A stretch of DNA of 47,270 bases, from NCBI GenBank assembly GCA_050178385.1, contig JBFXGD010000007.1:1-47270 (forward strand), in the 5' to 3' direction. Made by a program: the position numbers and the translations under genes. Shown here one piece after another: positions 13,832 to 22,344 of the stretch. Below the pieces are notes generated by a model. That model had not been told where the DNA came from and made no database searches. It was given only the letters and a program-made list of their open reading frames with translations. The number at the start of each line of letters is the position of its first letter. Within the stretch, counting starts at the first letter, position 1. The stretch comes from Calditrichaceae bacterium. Lineage in GTDB: Bacteria > Calditrichota > Calditrichia > Calditrichales > JBFXGD01.

Positions 13832-16603
13832 TTAAATTTTATATCCAAATAATACTGAATATATAATTAATAGTATCAGTACAATTCCTATTGTAAGAAA
13901 GGTAAATCCCAATACATGAATAAACCGCTCCCTGCGTTTCGATATGTATTCTTTCACAACCATCTTTTTTAATGCGCCGCTTTTCTTAAGTTCTGCATAA
14001 TCTTCGGGACGATCTTTCATATATTCTTCAATGGGAACAAGCCCTGTAAATATTACTTTATCCATCGGGAAGGCTTCGGGTCTCAGATGTGTATTAAAAA
14101 AATGAATCGTAAAAATGAACCCAACGGCCAGCAGCGCCTCATCACTGTGAATAATTGTAGCCACGTTAATCAGCCATCCGGGGAAAAATTTTGTGAAAAA
14201 TTCAGGGAACCAAAGCATCAAGCCCGATAATCCGATCACCGCCACGCCCCAAAAAACCGCGAAATAATCAAATTTTTCCCAGTATGTCCATTTCCCGTAA
14301 TCCGGCCGTTCTCCCTTTCCCAGAAACCATTTAAGAGTTCCCCAGAAATCGGCAGCATCTTTTTTATTGAACATCATGGAATCCCGTCCAAATATAAAAT
14401 CTTTCCATGGCGTCTTGCGGCTGATTTTTCTTTTTATCAACTGGTAGAGATGACTTGTAAAATAACCCGCCGTCAATATGGCCGCAAACCTGTGAATCCA
14501 TCCGGCTGCCTCCACACCGCCGACTAATTTCGACAGGTATCCGGCCCAGGGCATACCCGAAAACTTTAGCATCATCCCGGTTAGCGCGAGCAAAATAAAA
14601 CTGATAATTACAAATATATGTGTGAGCCTCTGTGAAAATTCAAAGCGCCGTATGTAATATCTTGTCTGCGGTTCTTTTTTTTGTTTCTGCCTTTCTCTAA
14701 GATGACGGAAAGAGCGTGGAAGCCACAAAAGCGTATGTATGCCGAAAAAACCGAATACGCTTACAAGCAGGATTGTCATCGCCCAGTATGTATAATAAAG
14801 GATCGGATATTTTACCGGATCATGATGAGTGGCATGCGTCAGATATCCCGTAAATCGCTGATTCGCGTCATCATGACATTTTTGACAAGTATTCACGATA
14901 TGATGCAGCCCGACACTGGAATTCGGATCATTGATACCAAAAATAAGATGTGAATTATGGCAGTCTGAACATTTCGCCGATTTTAGATAACCAAGCTGGT
15001 ATGTTTTTCCATGCATGGTCTGCAAATAAGTCTCGGAAAGTTCTTTATGGCAGGTTCCGCATTGATCGGTTACCTCGGTCATAAACTGGTCTTTCTCCAC
15101 TTCGGTTATCTTGTGTGAAGAATGACACTGTGTGCATGTCGGGAGCTTTTCCATTTCCCGGTCATCCACTGAGAAATGAATGCTTTTTGTATAATCCTTA
15201 TAGATTCCCCTATGACATGTGGCACAGGTAGCCGGAATATTTTTGGGATGGACAGATGAACGGGTATCCTCGTGATTGAGCTCCATATGCGCGGTATGAC
15301 AATCCGTGCAAACCGCGCTCGGCAGCAACCCCTTCTCGGTCAGGCCCCGGCCGTGAACGCTTTTTGAATAATCGAATAACGCGTTTGTTTGTGATAAATG
15401 CCGGGTCTCTTCCAGACTGCTGTCTGAACGGTGGCATTCCCCGCACAACTTTGGTATGCTCGCCCTGTACGTATTGGATGTTTCATCCAGTGATGATTTT
15501 GTATCATGATAACCATGGCAGGCGGTACAATACGGTACGTGATTATTTCCCTCCTTGTACCCTTTCCCGTGCCCGCTGGCCATGTATTCTTCGCCTATCT
15601 TTGTATGGCAGCCCGAACAATCAACAGGTCCAGCCGTTTTACACGGCCGGTCCAATTGCGGGTTAACATCCGAATGGCATTTTACACAGCTAACTTCATT
15701 ATGAACCGATTCAGAGATAGTGGTTTTTGTAACCTGCAGATTAATAATTTCGCCATTCTTGATTTTGTGGATATTCTGATCATCGTGGCATTTAAGACAT
15801 GATTTGTCAGATACTTTTAATGTTAGCGATTCCTTTCGCGCTTTATGCGGGAGATGGCAATCGGTGCACGCCGGGATAGAACCGGGATCTCTGCTCCATT
15901 TTTCACCTTCAATCACTTTGACATGAACATCTTCGATTCGGCTGTGACATTTCATACAGGTGGATGCGATATTCCTTGGTGAAATAGATGATTTAGTATT
16001 AGTATGGGGCAAAATAAAGTGACTTCCGTGACAATCGGCGCACGCGGCGCTGACAATCAATCCTTTTTTAAATAAACCTTCTCCATGAATACTCAGGCTG
16101 TAATTTTCAAGAATATTATGTTCTGTGATATTATAAACACGCGCGACCGGGGCGCCCTCTCTGTGGCATTTACCGCAAAGAAAGGGGATGTTCATTTTAT
16201 ATGATGGAGATTTTGGGTTCTCTGGCGAGAGAATATCATGTTTTCCATGACACTCACTGCAATTAGGGGCATATATTTGTTTTTGCTTGAGAGCCATTCC
16301 GTGAATTCCTGAATCGAATTCAAGCTGCGTATCATCATGACAATCGCCACAGTGGACAGGAGTTAACCTTTCAGGATGAGGGAATTCTTCTACATCCGCG
16401 TCGGGGTGGCAACTAATACACTCCACATCTTTATGCACCGAATTTTTTAAAACCGACGGATTGATATAAAGCGAAACCATCCTGTTTCCGCGCTGAACTG
16501 TCAGCTCGGGATCAGAATGACATTCAAGGCAGGTTTCGTCATCGACAGCAAATAGATTACTGCCGGCTAACAAAATTAATAATGTCAGCCAGATTCTCAT
16601 CAT
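13832..16603 (-). CDS. 19-heme cytochrome c fused to an FdnI/HydC-type diheme cytochrome b membrane domain (CbcL-like quinol oxidoreductase)
   Basis: Signal peptide; 19 CXXCH counted; TM domain with RLTH, WIHR, IIHSDEA, TIHFF and [12 protein letters not shown]. Start uncertain (16600-16630). Confidence 0.9.
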
Positions 16604-16647
16604 ATTCATCCATGGTACTCTGGAACACAATCGCTTTATTTATAAAG

Positions 16648-16729
16648 ATCCGGTTGCCGCTCCAAACAATTTCCAATCATCAGTGACCGGAAATTATACT
16701 GCTATATTCGTTTGGAGCGGCAACCGGAT
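16648..16729. repeat. Perfect 20-bp inverted repeat (stem-loop) between the two cytochrome c/b genes
   Basis: ATCCGGTTGCCGCTCCAAAC (16648-16667) and GTTTGGAGCGGCAACCGGAT (16710-16729), 42-nt loop. Confidence 0.9.
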
Positions 16730-16739
16730 AATAAATACC

Positions 16740-18662
16740 CTATATTTTGGGTTGATGTGAATTGTCTTTTTGCTCCATCAGCTTTTCATACTCAAGCGGA
16801 TGATGATGCTTCATTTCATCCAAAGTAATTTTCCCATCCATCCAGGTCGTGCTCATCGGATATTTTTCAGGATGGAGAATAACAAAGAACCAGTGCCAGA
16901 TTACAATCGCAAGAGTAGCCAGCCATGCCTCATAATAATGAATCACCTCCGAGGTTTCAAATAGCCAGGTCGGGAGAAAACCTATAAAAATTTCAGGGAA
17001 CCACAACACCAGACCGCTTGCCCCCATCACAATCACACCCCAAATCAGAGCCAGATATTCAGCCTTTTCGGCATAATCAAATCGCCCGAAACGAGGTCTA
17101 TCCTTACTCAGTCCCAGATAAAAAGAAATATTTTTCCATAATCCGATCACATCATCCAGCGTCGGCATTAATTCTATTAGTTCTCTTCGTCCTTTCTGAG
17201 TGAACAAAAGATATCCCAATTGAACCAATGAGATTGTACCCATAACAACCGCCGCGACTCTGTGGGTTACGGATCGTATGACCTCTGTCATACCGAGTGA
17301 GACAAGTAGTTTTACCCAGCCCGCTTCCGGAAATTTCAGCGCAAAGCCTGTAATCGCTAGCAAGGTAAAACTAAGAAACATCAACATGTGCTGATAAACT
17401 TCAAACGACTGAAACCTCGGCACACGTTCCGCGTATTTGTCCGCTTTTCTTTTTTCACGGATATGATGAACAAGGATGATCAGATTGTGGATGAACATTC
17501 CGCCGATCACAACAACAATCATCCATATATATAAGTTTTTAATGAAGAAAGCGATCGGATTTCTGACCTGCTGATTTATCGGATGCACATCAATCTTAAC
17601 AAAACTGTCCGAAATATTTGCATGGCAATTGCCGCACGTTTCCTGCAGATGCGCGGGATGAACACTCGCCAGACTATCCGATTTTGATTTGATCGCGTGT
17701 GTTTCATGGCAGCTTGTACAGGTTGCCACCTCAGGAGATCCTTTCAGCGCGGCCAAACCGTGATAGCTTTTCATATAGGAATCCAGCCGCTCAGCATCCA
17801 ATCCGAATCTCGACATGAGTGTTGGAGAAGAATGACAGCTTGCGCAAAGTTTCGTGGACTGAAGAAGACCGCTGGTTGTCGCGTTTTTATCCGATGCCAT
17901 CTTTATATCATGTTCACCGTGACAATCTGTACAAACCGGTGATTCGCCATGTCCACGCTGTAATGAATTCCAGTGAATACTGTCATGATATTCATCTTTT
18001 TCACTTTCATGACAAGTACCGCATGTTTCCGGTATATTCAGGGCATTCAAATGTGATTCAGGATTAATGGCCGGTAAGATGGCATGATAATCATGACAGT
18101 CCGTACAGGTTGCCACTTCTGCCTCGGGATCTTCGGTAATCATTTTCCCGTGAACACTTTCAAGATAACTTGCAACCGGATTAACGTTTCTTCTGCCAAA
18201 CAGTCGAATAACTTCCGGTTTCGCATGGCAAGCCGCGCATGTATAAGCTAGATTTCCGTGATGGACCTTTGACTCCGGCTCATCTGAACTCAGAATATCG
18301 TGTACCCCATGACAGTCCGTACAGCTGGCGGCGGCTTCCGACCCCTTTGCCAGCGCCTGACCGTGAATGCTCCGGTTATATTCTTCCTGGGCATCCTCAT
18401 GGCAGTTGGCACAATTCACAGGAGTCAGAATCTCCTCGTGCGGTAATTCTTCAATCCCCTGATGACAATCGATGCACTCAAATCCACCATGAATGGAATT
18501 CTCGAAATTTTCCGCATGTACAAAAACAGAAACTTCCGTAGTGTCATTGATCATCCTTGTCAGATCCGGATCGCTATGGCATTCCATACAATCTTCGTTG
18601 GACTGTCCAAAAGCAAATACCGCGGCTGCGAATAGCAATAATAGCACTCGTTTCAAAAGCAT
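16740..18662 (-). CDS. 11-heme cytochrome c fused to a diheme cytochrome b membrane domain (CbcL-like)
   Basis: GAGG RBS before ATG 18662; signal peptide; 11 CXXCH; TM His in YQHM, THRV, IHYYEA, IWHW; FGRFDYAEKAEY. Confidence 0.9.
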   Translation of the reverse strand: MLLKRVLLLLFAAAVFAFGQSNEDCMECHSDPDLTRMINDTTEVSVFVHAENFENSIHGGFECIDCHQGIEELPHEEILTPVNCANCHEDAQEEYNRSIHGQALAKGSEAAASCTDCHGVHDILSSDEPESKVHHGNLAYTCAACHAKPEVIRLFGRRNVNPVASYLESVHGKMITEDPEAEVATCTDCHDYHAILPAINPESHLNALNIPETCGTCHESEKDEYHDSIHWNSLQRGHGESPVCTDCHGEHDIKMASDKNATTSGLLQSTKLCASCHSSPTLMSRFGLDAERLDSYMKSYHGLAALKGSPEVATCTSCHETHAIKSKSDSLASVHPAHLQETCGNCHANISDSFVKIDVHPINQQVRNPIAFFIKNLYIWMIVVVIGGMFIHNLIILVHHIREKRKADKYAERVPRFQSFEVYQHMLMFLSFTLLAITGFALKFPEAGWVKLLVSLGMTEVIRSVTHRVAAVVMGTISLVQLGYLLFTQKGRRELIELMPTLDDVIGLWKNISFYLGLSKDRPRFGRFDYAEKAEYLALIWGVIVMGASGLVLWFPEIFIGFLPTWLFETSEVIHYYEAWLATLAIVIWHWFFVILHPEKYPMSTTWMDGKITLDEMKHHHPLEYEKLMEQKDNSHQPKI

Positions 18663-18672
18663 TAATTCCTCA

Positions 18673-19560
18673 CTACTTTCCATGACAGGTGACACAAACT
18701 ACATCCGTATAAGCATCATTGTGACAACTCATACAGTTATCAAAATCAGACCGGCCGACTCTCGCATGTCTGCCACCGTTTCCCGGAACCGTATTTGACC
18801 AGTTTGCAAAAGCATGGTTTTGGGGCATAACTCTCTCTGTCTGATGGCAGTCGATGCAGAATGAAAACTCTTCATGGCAGGTCAAACAATTGTCTTTATT
18901 CCCTTTGGCCTGCATCCCGTGAGTCTGTCTGAAATTAAGCGGATGTACTTCACGATTCAAATTGTCGCCTTCATGACAAGTCGTGCAATAACTATTCTGA
19001 TGACAGTGGTTGCATGAAGTTGTCTGTGACATCATACCGTGGTCTTTTTTCCAGTTAAGCCGGTGTGTCTCAGGCACAAATTTCATATCTGATTCATGAC
19101 AGCTTAAACAAGCCTGCTTATTCTCACTGTAATCCGGATTTTCATGGCAAGTGGCGCAAACCTGATTATCGGGTATATGCGAGGATCCAACTTTTTCTTT
19201 TTTATCTATCCCCTGATGGCAGGTCAAACAGTTTTTATCACCTGACACATGTGTTTTATGAGGAAATTTACTTCCATAATCAACGACACGCTGGGCGACA
19301 CCCGGTTCATCGGTATTTGTGTGGCACATAGCGCATTCTACTTCATCCGGATCATGGCAGCTATTACAAGTCTCCATTGCCGGGAGCAAATTATCCGTCT
19401 GCGAAAGACTGCTACTGGCATTGGCATGACAATCTGTGCAGGCTGCGCCGACATCTTCCGCATGCAATTGATGCGAGAATATTATCTGATCCGGAGCCTG
19501 AGCATTGGCAAAACCGGTCAGACAGAACATTACGATGGTTACAACTGATATGACTTTCAT
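18673..19560 (-). CDS. Periplasmic 12-heme c-type cytochrome (cytochrome c3-like repeats)
   Basis: Signal peptide ending ANA; 12 CXXCH in 295 aa; FSHQLH and FPHKTH c3-type motifs. Confidence 0.92.
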   Translation of the reverse strand: MKVISVVTIVMFCLTGFANAQAPDQIIFSHQLHAEDVGAACTDCHANASSSLSQTDNLLPAMETCNSCHDPDEVECAMCHTNTDEPGVAQRVVDYGSKFPHKTHVSGDKNCLTCHQGIDKKEKVGSSHIPDNQVCATCHENPDYSENKQACLSCHESDMKFVPETHRLNWKKDHGMMSQTTSCNHCHQNSYCTTCHEGDNLNREVHPLNFRQTHGMQAKGNKDNCLTCHEEFSFCIDCHQTERVMPQNHAFANWSNTVPGNGGRHARVGRSDFDNCMSCHNDAYTDVVCVTCHGK

Positions 19561-19573
19561 ACGACAGCACCTT

Positions 19574-20770
19574 TTACCAAATGAAATGGATATGGTTTAA
19601 TATACGTTGATCCGAGTCTTTCTCCCGGTTTGTCAGCCACTGATATTCCAGATCAGCGCTCCAGTTTTTTGAGAAACTATATGATGCCCTGACAGCATTT
19701 GCCAACTGATCTTCGTACTCATACACTTCCTCAAATCGGTATTGAGAATAGTCAACACTGAGTGATGCCAGAAGCTTTGGTGTAACCTGGTATCCGTAAT
19801 CGACCGTTACACCTGCCTGATCACCCAGATCACCGGTTTCAAAAATGAATCCCAACGCTCCATTAGAATTATTCAGTGTCAGCAGTACCCTCTGTCCGTC
19901 TGCGTCTTCCATCTGGAGAAACTGATATTCCGCGCTAAGATAGTATTCATCTGTCAGCGCGTAAGAACCGTTAAACGCGCTTAGGGTGTACTCTTCCAAA
20001 TCAAAAATACGGAAATATGAGTCACCATAAATTTGCGGATGCTGCTGCTTAAAGTAAAGGTTAGCGCTAAATTTATTCGACACGCGATATCTTCCGGACA
20101 AGTAGAAACGATGCAGGCGGTCATTTACCAAATCATAATGAGTCTGCAACATAATCCTCAGATTATTGACCGATGAGTTATATAAATTCAAACCTGCGAT
20201 TTGCCACTGCGTTTCACCGGAATTCGTTTTTTGAAGATATACACCCTGAAAATCTGTGTCATAAAAATTCTTGTATTTCAGGGCCGTCCCATAAACAGCC
20301 GCATCATCTGATTCGTAGATCTCAAAAGCTTTGTCAAAATGAGATTCGACACCGCCATAAAGTTGCCATTCCACGTTTTTGATCGGACGAAAGATCATAT
20401 TCAGGCCATCAATACTCCCCAGAACCAACCCGGGATGAAGAAATTGCCTTCCTAATTCAAAATCCATCAGATTATTAAACATTCCTTTGCCGGATATGGA
20501 CATGCGGTATGCGTTAAATCTTCTTTCATCCGCAAGATCTTCATCAAGATCGGTGAGAATCCTGCCTGAAACATTAAATCTAAGATCTCCCCACTCTTTC
20601 ATTCTGGCCTGAAAACGGACGGTCTGATACAAACGTGTATGCGAAGTGGTATCTTCATATGAATATACCGTATTCGAAATGCGTCCGTTTGTCTGAATAC
20701 CCTGGGCAAAAAGACTCGTTGAAAGAAAACCCAGTACCATAATGCTAGATAAAACAATTTTCGTTTTCAT
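19574..20770 (-). CDS. Outer-membrane beta-barrel porin of a porin-cytochrome conduit
   Basis: Signal peptide; Tyr/Phe/Gly-rich alternating strands; C-terminal aromatic residue (HIHFIW); flanked by multiheme cytochromes. Confidence 0.8.
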   Translation of the reverse strand: MKTKIVLSSIMVLGFLSTSLFAQGIQTNGRISNTVYSYEDTTSHTRLYQTVRFQARMKEWGDLRFNVSGRILTDLDEDLADERRFNAYRMSISGKGMFNNLMDFELGRQFLHPGLVLGSIDGLNMIFRPIKNVEWQLYGGVESHFDKAFEIYESDDAAVYGTALKYKNFYDTDFQGVYLQKTNSGETQWQIAGLNLYNSSVNNLRIMLQTHYDLVNDRLHRFYLSGRYRVSNKFSANLYFKQQHPQIYGDSYFRIFDLEEYTLSAFNGSYALTDEYYLSAEYQFLQMEDADGQRVLLTLNNSNGALGFIFETGDLGDQAGVTVDYGYQVTPKLLASLSVDYSQYRFEEVYEYEDQLANAVRASYSFSKNWSADLEYQWLTNREKDSDQRILNHIHFIW

Positions 20771-20792: not shown

Positions 20793-20826
20793 AAAAAGAG
20801 GCGGATTCAACATGAATTCCGCCTCC
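20793..20826 (-). terminator. Internal terminator-like / stabilising hairpin after the Sec-cytochrome gene
   Basis: Minus strand GAGGCGGAATTC-ATGTT-GAATCCGCCTC-TTTTT. Confidence 0.6.
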
Positions 20827-20841
20827 GGATTGGCTCAACAC

Positions 20842-22233
20842 TTATCTTTTTGGTACTACAACATTTTGATTTGCTGCTTTTTCCTGGTCTAGAAATTGCT
20901 GAAGACTTGGATCGCTTACGCCAATTGTCAGAGAATCTTCACGCAGGAAATATTTATCGCTGTTTCCAAGGAAAGTACCAACATTATGACAGGTTCCTCT
21001 ACCGCAGGAAACTCCGCCGGTCGTGTCGGTCATAACCGTCCAGCGCTGTATATTATGAGGTGTCGCGTATTTCCATGTCGGTTCCGCAGTAAAATTTGCA
21101 AGCGAAATACTGCCGCCCCAGTTGTCATAGGTATCCGGAACAATCGGAATATGTCTTACCGGAGTAAAATCATATGGCCGGGTGGCGCTTTTAAGATAAT
21201 TTTTACCAATTTTAAAGGTGAGATAAGATGACCCGGTGATACCTTCACCGTTAACATGACAGCCGTTACAATTTTTGTAGGCTTGTGAATGGCAGGTCTG
21301 GCATGATAATTTGGATCCGCTTCCTGACCAATGCTGATTGTGATAACTATTTGAAGTTGCTACGTCAGCATGACAGTCTTCGCACTTAGCGATGATCTGA
21401 GAATCTTCAATATAGCGATAATCATACGGGTTACCGTCGCCATGCATTTCGTGACCGTCATGACAGAACATGCAATCATATCCTTTTGATGAATGGACAT
21501 CCATGAAGATCCCTTTATCACTGTGAGCGCCGGTATATTCTTCTCCAACGCGTGAGCCGTGACATGCGGTGCAGTTGTTTGACTGACTGGGCGTCCTTCT
21601 GAAGGTGTGCCCTGATACCAGTCCGCCATTGACCGATCGCGGTTTACTGATATGGCATTCCCCGCATGTGGCGTGACATTTCGCGCAATCTTTTGTAAAT
21701 CCGGCCACCATTGCGTCATCCGTCCTAAGATCCATTCCGCCGGACCGCACTTCAAATCTCTGGTGGTAGCCTTCCTGTGTAAGGTGCAGACTTGTTTCAA
21801 AACTTGAAACTTGCTGCGAATGGCAGGGACCGCAATAGGTCTCAGCATCTGATAAAGACGGATATGGCACTAAATCGGTATGTGCATCCGTTTTTGTAAA
21901 TTTTTCGGGATTGCCCTTATGACAGGCGGTACACCCTAGATTTCCGTGCGTGGAAGTAAGAAATTCTGCTCTAACAAAAACACGTTCCCATGCCTCAACC
22001 TGAGGCACTTCGCCGCCTCAGCCCTCGCCGGTTTCACCGCCGGTATCGGGAAGAGCATCGGCAACCTTAATCAACAAATCTTTGTCTGTATGACAGCTGA
22101 CACAACTGGTTTCATCTACAGAAGCGAATTTCTTCGTTTCCACAGGATACTTTTCTTCACATGCTGTCATCCATGTGACCGCTAAAACGAAGAGGACAAG
22201 AAGAACAATTTTTCTAACCATGACCTTATCCAT
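20842..22233 (-). CDS. Predicted selenocysteine-containing multiheme c-type cytochrome lipoprotein (463 aa; 10 CXXCH plus CX4CH; Sec at codon 72)
   Basis: ORFs 22018..22233 and 20842..22008 are in one frame, joined by TGA-GGC-GGC-GAA. Only the N-terminal part has the lipoprotein signal (MTAC). A SECIS-like hairpin follows the UGA. Confidence 0.8.
21990..22020 (-). promoter_or_regulatory. UGA codon plus bacterial SECIS-like element
   Basis: UGA-GGCGGCGAA-GUGCCUCA-GGU-UGAGGCAU: 8-bp stem, G-first apical loop 17 nt after UGA. Confidence 0.75.
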
Positions 22234-22270: not shown

Positions 22271-22306
22271 AAAAAACAAACCAGGCTCATTTTCTGAGCC
22301 CAGTTT
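22271..22306 (-). terminator. Terminator-like hairpin between the rhodanese and Sec-cytochrome genes
   Basis: Minus strand AAACTGGGCTCA-GAAAA-TGAGCCTGGTTT-GTTTTTT. Confidence 0.6.
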
Positions 22307-22344
22307 ATATAACATTTAACATCAAGAAAGATCAAACATTCATT

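Follow-up and report, generated by a model that had tools for sequence, protein, structure and literature searches.

Within the window, by which we mean the whole analysed stretch of 47,270 nucleotides of contig JBFXGD010000007.1 (Calditrichaceae bacterium, assembly GCA_050178385.1), a minus-strand gene at 22233..20842 is predicted to encode a lipoprotein cytochrome with eleven heme motifs and one selenocysteine (Sec). Judging by the reading frame and by its homologues, we regard it as near certain that this is a single gene for a selenoprotein. The best explanation as a whole is a one-gene cytochrome with Sec at residue 72, which would be exported and supplied with hemes, whose core distantly resembles that of octaheme tetrathionate reductase (OTR), and which would reduce sulfane sulfur with electrons fed from quinol. 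We put the probability of this explanation at roughly 0.8.

The in-frame UGA and its counterparts in homologues

The frame opens with ATG at 22233 and runs for 71 codons up to TGA at 22020..22018. Past this codon it continues unbroken (GGC GGC GAA GTG...) until TAA at 20842, and the TGA is the sole interruption in a read-through product of 463 residues. Ten CXXCH motifs are encoded, one before the TGA and nine after it. An additional motif, CGRGTCH at residues 410-416, has the form CX4CH in the window protein and CX2-3CH in its relatives. Heme c attachment occurs outside the cytoplasm. The 388-residue part that follows the TGA carries nine CXXCH motifs without an export signal of its own. Because the downstream hemes need export and the signal lies only upstream, the two halves are meaningful only when joined in one chain. 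The remaining seven genes of the cluster all stop with TAA or TAG.

A sequence-only reading of the window, made before this analysis, had proposed one selenoprotein gene split by annotation. It placed a TGA at 22018-22020 between reading frames of 71 and 388 residues, joined in the same frame through GGC GGC GAA, and it described the downstream part as having nine CXXCH motifs and no export signal. Further, it held that TAA or TAG closes every other gene of the cluster, and that the product is a lipoprotein of 463 residues and 10-11 hemes with Sec in a Gly-rich stretch after heme 1 and not in a CxxU motif. All this is borne out on the minus strand: the frame is single, the motifs number ten CXXCH and one CX4CH, the lipobox Cys is residue 25, Sec72 stands in G-U-G-G, and public records of the protein are fragmentary. 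Its expectation about homologues was also right: they have TGA or Cys at this codon, and the sequence is conserved to either side of it.

The codon was followed in two sets of homologues. In the first, drawn from 41 genomes within the same order or class, 32 full-length loci were obtained, 29 of which contain exactly one in-frame TGA, always at the identical aligned codon; the other three contain none and have Cys (TGC or TGT) there. The second set comes from a scan of species-representative genomes with at least 584 relatives, where the best 80 loci were scored at the site and comprised 62 TGA and 18 Cys forms. When both sets were pooled and eight duplicates dropped, 104 distinct homologues from many phyla remained: 85 with TGA, 19 with Cys and none with any other codon. 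Chance cannot account for one TGA recurring at one aligned codon in so many sequences. Residue 72 lies within an invariant [U/C]-G-G, and the sequence on either side is conserved (alignments A2 and A3). A tree of 109 rows places the Cys forms in two clades nested among Sec forms, an arrangement familiar from other selenoprotein families.

Two gene copies each are present in genomes G034 (C202, C197) and G073 (C70, C33), those of G034 coming from different clades of the family tree. In one genome of the class, the homologue (G042 contig C10:142169-143403) consists of two pieces and contains an additional TAA; it is possibly a decayed copy.

One might argue that the TGA is an assembly error, a lesion in a pseudogene, or a codon for some other amino acid, be it Trp or, with a reassigned code, Gly. 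The motif around it, G-E-G-[TGA]-G-G, is indeed Gly-rich, and the assembly behind the window is a draft in 320 contigs. The same TGA is found, however, in 85 distinct homologues of many phyla. Independent assemblies retain it as well: contigs from two further runs have the TGA, and one of them represents a strain variant, with 9 differences over 167 bases (run X3 has no contig over the stretch compared); a sequencing error, which the sequence-only reading had named as a point to check, is thereby disfavoured. No homologue has GGN, TGG or any codon besides TGA, TGT and TGC at the site. As TGA terminates 629 of 2399 long frames in the genome, it is not reassigned. The genome also holds the full Sec machinery, selA, selB, selC and selD: a tRNA-SeC with anticodon tca is present, and SelA, SelB and SelD are matched at 451, 62.6 and 370 bits, respectively. 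We consider an error, a lesion or another residue very improbable. The SelD gene (G000 contig C51:8792-9727, locus L036) contains one in-frame TGA itself, and its product is probably a selenoprotein too.

The hairpin downstream of the UGA

The bacterial selenocysteine insertion sequence (SECIS) consensus is a stem-loop just downstream of the UGA with a G in the apical loop. Such a hairpin, GUGCCUCA-GGU-UGAGGCAU, lies at 22008..21990. Its loop G is the 18th base after the UGA, with 17 bases between, which agrees with the G-first loop at 17 nucleotides put forward in the sequence-only reading. A conserved helix of 7 bp with a 3-base loop begins at the 11th base after the UGA.

For comparison of relatives we used a gap-free coding alignment of the 29 TGA-type loci (A1), in which the 7-bp helix was named and its pairs were then counted. 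Standard pairs occupy 80% of cells, and a shift of the 3´ arm by one to three columns lowers this share to 36-54%. Compensatory changes occur at three pairs (G-C to C-G, U-A to C-G and C-G to A-U), and one of them couples a synonymous change in an Ala codon to a Glu-to-Gly replacement. Over all distinct sequences, 84 TGA forms and 19 Cys forms were compared. At least six of the seven pairs are formed in 68 of the former and 1 of the latter, and a G-first loop is present in 83 and 4 of them, respectively. The support for the hairpin comes from these pair counts and from the contrast between TGA and Cys forms, not from the energy of a single sequence. The UGA context appears to be constrained as well. 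Both Gly codons after the UGA (22012-22017; A1 columns 10-15) are mostly GGC GGC among the 29 sequences, column 12 being C in 28 of them and column 15 in 22 (the rest T or A). Since this bias exceeds the need of the protein, it suggests a constraint at the level of RNA.

Several results of RNA analysis speak against the hairpin. RNAalifold on A1 gave only a 4-bp helix around the UGA and did not return the hairpin. In three loci (L006, L007, L011) the hairpin is one base out of register, a shift that a gap-free coding alignment cannot display. The single-sequence fold of 81 nucleotides is unremarkable (z -1.6), and in the fold of minimum free energy the 5´ arm is taken up by pairing with the UGA region. 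Rfam, scanned over the entire window with its gathering thresholds, had 0 matches, a result that says nothing on bacterial SECIS elements. In the process we propose, SelB with Sec-tRNA(Sec) would bind the hairpin and selenocysteine would be placed at codon 72.

The sequence-only reading had kept one reservation, namely possible reinitiation. On such a view translation would stop at the TGA and restart downstream, so that two separate genes exist, one for a 71-residue monoheme lipoprotein and one, starting with GTG at 22008, for a 388-residue cytochrome. Gene callers treat the locus in this manner, and the public fragments among the matches listed have 346-413 residues and cover 72-84% of the read-through protein. 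The GAGG seven nucleotides upstream of the GTG, on which the reservation rested, is present. Reinitiation itself fares worse. The GAGG is part of the conserved UGA-GGC-GGC coding string, and the GTG is replaced by GTC or GTA in 8 of the 29 TGA-type relatives. A free downstream protein would have nine CXXCH motifs, yet no export signal. Further, 19 homologues possess Cys and one uninterrupted frame, all 85 TGA forms keep the frame and the flanking residues across the stop, and the hairpin accompanies TGA, not Cys. Two separate genes are thus hardly credible, and we continue with a single Sec-containing chain.

Protein fold and known relatives

After translation, the signal peptide would export the entire chain, Cys25 would be lipidated, and eleven hemes c would be attached to the ten CXXCH motifs and the one C-terminal CX4CH. 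An AlphaFold2 model built on a 33-sequence alignment has a mean predicted local distance difference test score (pLDDT) of 80, with values below 50 in the signal-peptide linker. Foldseek against the PDB found nothing at E 0.001 or better for this model. A wider VIA structural scan gave one clear match, OTR of Shewanella (1sp3_A; Z 9.2, root-mean-square deviation 4.4, 270 residues), with residues 93-463 of the model aligned on residues 1-429 of the chain; the runner-up reached Z 4.4. The family profile detects 1sp3 by sequence as well (E 7.2e-8). A PDB sequence search with the single protein brought weak cytochrome c7 matches only and no MccSep; the structure library used for the fold searches ends in April 2026 and may predate the MccSep release.

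By model and profile, the core of the protein (hemes 2-10 and the beta-rich C-terminal domain) is a distant relative of OTR, and heme 1 with the Gly-rich Sec loop is an N-terminal addition to it. OTR of Shewanella oneidensis (PDB 1sp3) acts on sulfur and nitrogen oxyanions and shares the multiheme core fold, but it has 8 hemes against 11 motifs here, and heme 1 and the Sec loop fall outside the aligned core. The active-site heme of OTR is Lys-ligated, whereas A3 contains no invariant or nearly invariant Lys to match it. The fold and the profile match mean distant relatedness, not membership. The OTR family model TIGR04315 (cut-off 375 bits) misses the window gene at E 10. In the same genome it does match a separate, uninterrupted OTR (586 bits; contig C45:2861-4123, L118). 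About 12 kb from that OTR gene, at C45:16338-17048 (L126, L127), there is a cytochrome with a weak, 26-bit likeness to ExtKL/MccSep.

To our knowledge, MccSep (August 2026) is the only Sec-containing multiheme enzyme characterised, and it is the long-missing enzyme of sulfur respiration in Geobacter. In Geobacter sulfurreducens MccSep (ExtKL, GSU2937-2936) acts as a polysulfide (and selenite) reductase on which sulfur respiration depends (PMC13510729). The likeness to the window protein is considerable. Both are multiheme cytochromes c with one Sec at an in-frame UGA, a SECIS-like hairpin after it and an annotation split in two. Both families include paired Sec and Cys homologues, the Cys forms branching from within the Sec forms, and both genes cluster with those of a rhodanese lipoprotein (ExtH there) and an outer-membrane porin (ExtI there).

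There are equally important differences. MccSep has 5 hemes against the 11 motifs of the window protein. Its Sec325 lies in D-G-U-P within a C-terminal Ig-like domain, beside the heme-ligating Cys239 (PMC13510729); Sec72 lies in G-U-G-G right after heme 1, and the window family has no further conserved Cys outside the heme motifs. The MccSep family is reported mainly from Desulfobacterota and Nitrospirota (PMC13510729), while the window family occurs in Calditrichota, KSB1, Ignavibacteriota, Bacteroidota, Chloroflexota, Planctomycetota and others. The sequence-only reading had set the protein apart from Geobacter ExtKL by hemes and Sec position, and profile searches agree: the MccSep/ExtKL model NF040886 (cut-off 250 bits) has no match at E 0.01, nor at E 10 genome-wide. 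The NCBIfam scan found only a partial ExtM match of 39 bits (cut-off 800) and a weak ExtS match.

As for other heme selenoproteins, the selenoprotein table of a 2026 review comprises, in the part available, ExtKL, GSU2204 and OTR only, and a Sec-containing form of OTR (TIGR04315) is listed (PMC13188914). A CXXCH selenoprotein of the GSU2204 family (NF041027) was considered as well, with no match at E 0.01 in the NCBIfam scan. Another comparison is offered by Dethiobacter alkaliphilus, an organism that lacks psr and dsr but is able to reduce sulfur, polysulfide and thiosulfate (PMC5609068; PMC10376724). Its DealDRAFT_1917, misnamed "thiosulfate sulfurtransferase", is an OTR/SirA-like multiheme cytochrome adjoining the rhodanese DealDRAFT_1918 (PMC5609068; PMC10376724), and it resembles the window protein by description only. 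The available parts of these papers mention no Sec in it, and its host is Gram-positive, without an outer-membrane context.

The family alignment A3 contains nine conserved His outside the heme motifs (seven invariant, two nearly so) for eleven heme motifs, and no conserved Met, conserved Lys or further conserved non-motif Cys. These numbers would allow Sec72 (Cys in the Cys forms) to be the distal axial ligand of one heme. That would be a natural His/selenolate-ligated heme c, with selenium on iron. Heme-bound Cys ligands occur in TsdA, SoxAX and MccSep. We offer the idea tentatively and on the doubtful side. If Sec does serve as a ligand, the loop may swing off the heme in order to accept sulfane sulfur from the rhodanese described below. 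Together with the rhodanese, such a heme would amount to a second, independently evolved selenium-heme route to sulfur respiration in many uncultured phyla.

The rhodanese partner, the gene cluster and the proposed function

The gene of a double-rhodanese protein, typically of about 330 residues, directly adjoins the cytochrome gene in 101 of 111 loci. It lies upstream in close relatives of the window and downstream in the majority of the other loci. It is missing from ten loci, six of which end at a contig edge on that side. In 29 diverse partners the lipobox Cys and both active-site Cys (C21, C127, C286) are invariant, and the motif reads C-Y-[TS]-G-[HQ]-T. The outer-membrane barrel gene is present in 31 of the 111 loci, the window included, and the 12-heme cytochrome gene in 19; the two multiheme/cytochrome-b fusions are likewise limited to part of the loci. 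As the rhodanese is so much more frequent than these neighbours, the conserved unit is the cytochrome with a sulfur carrier. Adjacency in 101 of 111 loci provides strong indirect support for a cytochrome that would receive sulfur from the rhodanese. The cluster is summarised in Table 1.

Table 1. Features of the cytochrome gene and of its neighbours in the window
Feature	Position	Strand	Basis or remark
Whole gene, predicted Sec-containing undecaheme lipoprotein cytochrome	20842..22233	-	463 codons, Sec72; frame, homologues and AlphaFold2 model
Signal peptide and lipobox Cys25	22159..22233	-	Sole export signal of the protein; Cys25 nearly invariant (A2, A3)
Heme motif 1, CVSCH, residues 44-48	22090..22104	-	5´ of the UGA; C44, C47, H48 invariant
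In-frame UGA, predicted Sec72, in invariant [U/C]-G-G	22018..22020	-	Homologue codons; same TGA in contigs of two other runs
Putative SECIS hairpin, 8-9 bp stem, GGU loop	21990..22008	-	Helix pair counts and TGA/Cys contrast
Heme motifs 2-10, residues 101-326	21256..21933	-	OTR-like core; Cys and His of all nine motifs invariant
Atypical heme motif CGRGTCH (CX4CH), residues 410-416	20986..21006	-	Beta-rich C-terminal domain; C415, H416 invariant; C410 at least 90%
Double-rhodanese lipoprotein, 345 aa	22345..23382	-	PF00581 twice, E 6.5e-35; active-site Cys conserved in both domains
Outer-membrane beta-barrel, 398 aa, ~22 strands	19574..20770	-	AlphaFold2 pLDDT 82; Foldseek matches outer-membrane porins, E ~1e-8
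Exported 12-heme cytochrome, 295 aa	18673..19560	-	Cytochrome c7/c3 domains; in 19/111 loci
Multiheme domain fused to membrane cytochrome b, 651 aa	16740..18695	-	PF01292 E 2e-15, formate dehydrogenase gamma-like; candidate quinol oxidase
Second, larger multiheme and cytochrome b fusion, 932 aa	13832..16630	-	Domain scans
Small cytochrome lipoprotein, 149 aa	13339..13788	-	Closes the cluster; in 12/111 loci

We lean towards the function of a terminal reductase of sulfane sulfur, that is of polysulfide, elemental sulfur and possibly thiosulfate or tetrathionate, with selenite as a possible side activity. This assignment is built on comparative analysis, and the process might run as follows. The double-rhodanese lipoprotein would take up sulfane sulfur as a Cys persulfide and offer it to the cytochrome. 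The selenolate of Sec72, carried on the flexible Gly-rich loop, would attack the persulfide sulfur to give a Se-S adduct. The heme chain would then supply the electrons to reduce this adduct, with release of sulfide. A precedent for the transfer of sulfur to a reductase exists in the Sud-Psr system of Wolinella. In the lineage of the window, electrons would presumably pass from menaquinol through the two multiheme/cytochrome-b fusions to the 12-heme cytochrome and the 22-strand barrel, and a route fed through the barrel would put the chemistry at the outer membrane, possibly at the cell surface. The model borrows from MccSep, whose polysulfide reduction requires Sec beside a Cys-ligated heme and whose gene clusters with those of a rhodanese and a porin (PMC13510729).

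Several observations weigh against this model. The Sec loop (residues 65-73) has pLDDT below 50, and its placement relative to the hemes is therefore undefined in the model. No rhodanese was found at E 1e-5 in L048, L056 and L088, which have full flanks, or in L069, with a flank of 1.75 kb. The barrel, 12-heme and quinol-oxidase genes look like a conduit for extracellular electron transfer, which could mean chemistry on metals and not on sulfur. Finally, Caldithrix abyssi, a cultured member of Calditrichota, showed no sulfur or thiosulfate respiration with H2 or acetate in the part of the report available (PMC5317091), which bears on the question only if the gene is carried and expressed there.

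The same selenoprotein might accordingly have another job. It could be the outer terminal cytochrome of an extracellular conduit (for Fe(III)/Mn(IV) minerals or electron uptake), or it could work in the oxidative direction on thiosulfate or sulfide, as TsdA and SoxAX do; Sec would then tune a heme and not attack sulfur. The window encodes an outer-membrane barrel, an exported multiheme cytochrome and a lipoprotein cytochrome together, and the order of the cytochrome gene, the barrel, the 12-heme cytochrome and the two multiheme/cytochrome-b fusions is the anatomy of a porin-cytochrome conduit. These elements, including cytochrome-b fusions that might oxidise quinol, are shared with the Mtr and Geobacter Pcc/Ext conduits. 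Some family members have weak matches to MtrC/MtrF domains (PF22113), and weak structural matches to Mtr and OcwA (Z 3.5-3.6) were obtained. On the other hand, the window barrel is without a family-level match, and it is missing from most loci of the family; the counts of barrel and 12-heme genes given above fall far behind that of the rhodanese. The best fold and profile match is OTR, a reductase of sulfur and nitrogen oxyanions, and an invariant Sec/Cys is typical of chalcogen chemistry. We judge another job quite unlikely and keep sulfane-sulfur reduction as the preferred function.

Certain details of the neighbourhood are worth recording. The tandem genes for the 932-aa and 651-aa proteins (13832-18695, minus strand) combine a periplasmic multiheme part with a cytochrome b of formate-dehydrogenase-gamma or Ni-hydrogenase type. 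They resemble the CbcL-type quinol oxidases of Geobacter. The 398-aa barrel protein had no family match in family-model scans. Between the rhodanese and cytochrome genes there is a terminator-like hairpin (22276-22308, minus strand; 14 pairs, then a T run), and given this structure the two genes may not be strictly co-transcribed. By eye, a GC-rich hairpin with a T run can also be seen at ~20795-20835, between the cytochrome stop and the barrel gene; it is absent from the scan list. In Chloroflexota loci L093, L095, L096, L104, L106, L108, L110, L111, L114 and L115, the rhodanese frame measures ~600-870 residues against the usual ~330. This points to a fusion or to an additional domain. The cytochromes there have 12-13 CXXCH motifs.

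Extent of the family and its meaning

The scan of species-representative genomes holds at least 584 loci, and 1834 sequence clusters match at E 1e-20 or better. Besides the phyla named above, Krumholzibacteriota carry the gene. Within Calditrichota it is present in 39 of 86 species genomes and in 26 of the 53 high-quality ones. The public fragments among the matches listed are named "hypothetical protein", "cytochrome c family protein" or "multiheme c-type cytochrome". Only two of the 120 matches listed (429 and 439 residues) span at least 95% of the query; P0006, one such near-full-length protein (Actinomycetota metagenome-assembled genome, locus L044), is a Cys form. A selenoprotein label appears in none of the source names among these 120 matches. 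In five of them (P0026, P0032, P0087, P0102, P0103) JGI gives the name "thiosulfate/3-mercaptopyruvate sulfurtransferase", a wrong name that was probably carried over from the neighbouring rhodanese and that repeats the error reported for DealDRAFT_1917. We found no description of the family in the literature searched, whose scope lay outside subscription journals and data S1/S2 of PMC13510729.

Taken together, multiheme cytochromes with Sec are already known, and the window family is a new and large one among them, with its own architecture and Sec site. It is undetected by the MccSep model and shares with MccSep the accessory logic (a rhodanese, sometimes a porin) in spite of its different architecture and Sec position. 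Because annotation cuts the gene at the UGA and leaves a signal-less "hypothetical" cytochrome, it is invisible to metabolic reconstructions. Its recognition would give annotation pipelines a new family model. For chemists interested in selenoproteins and hemes, the family presents a clean natural Sec/Cys experiment. Sulfur metabolism is poorly understood in the phyla that carry it. Recognition of the family would add a candidate reductase of sulfur and polysulfide (or of thiosulfate and tetrathionate) to many of their genomes, and it would link sulfur chemistry to the supply of selenium.

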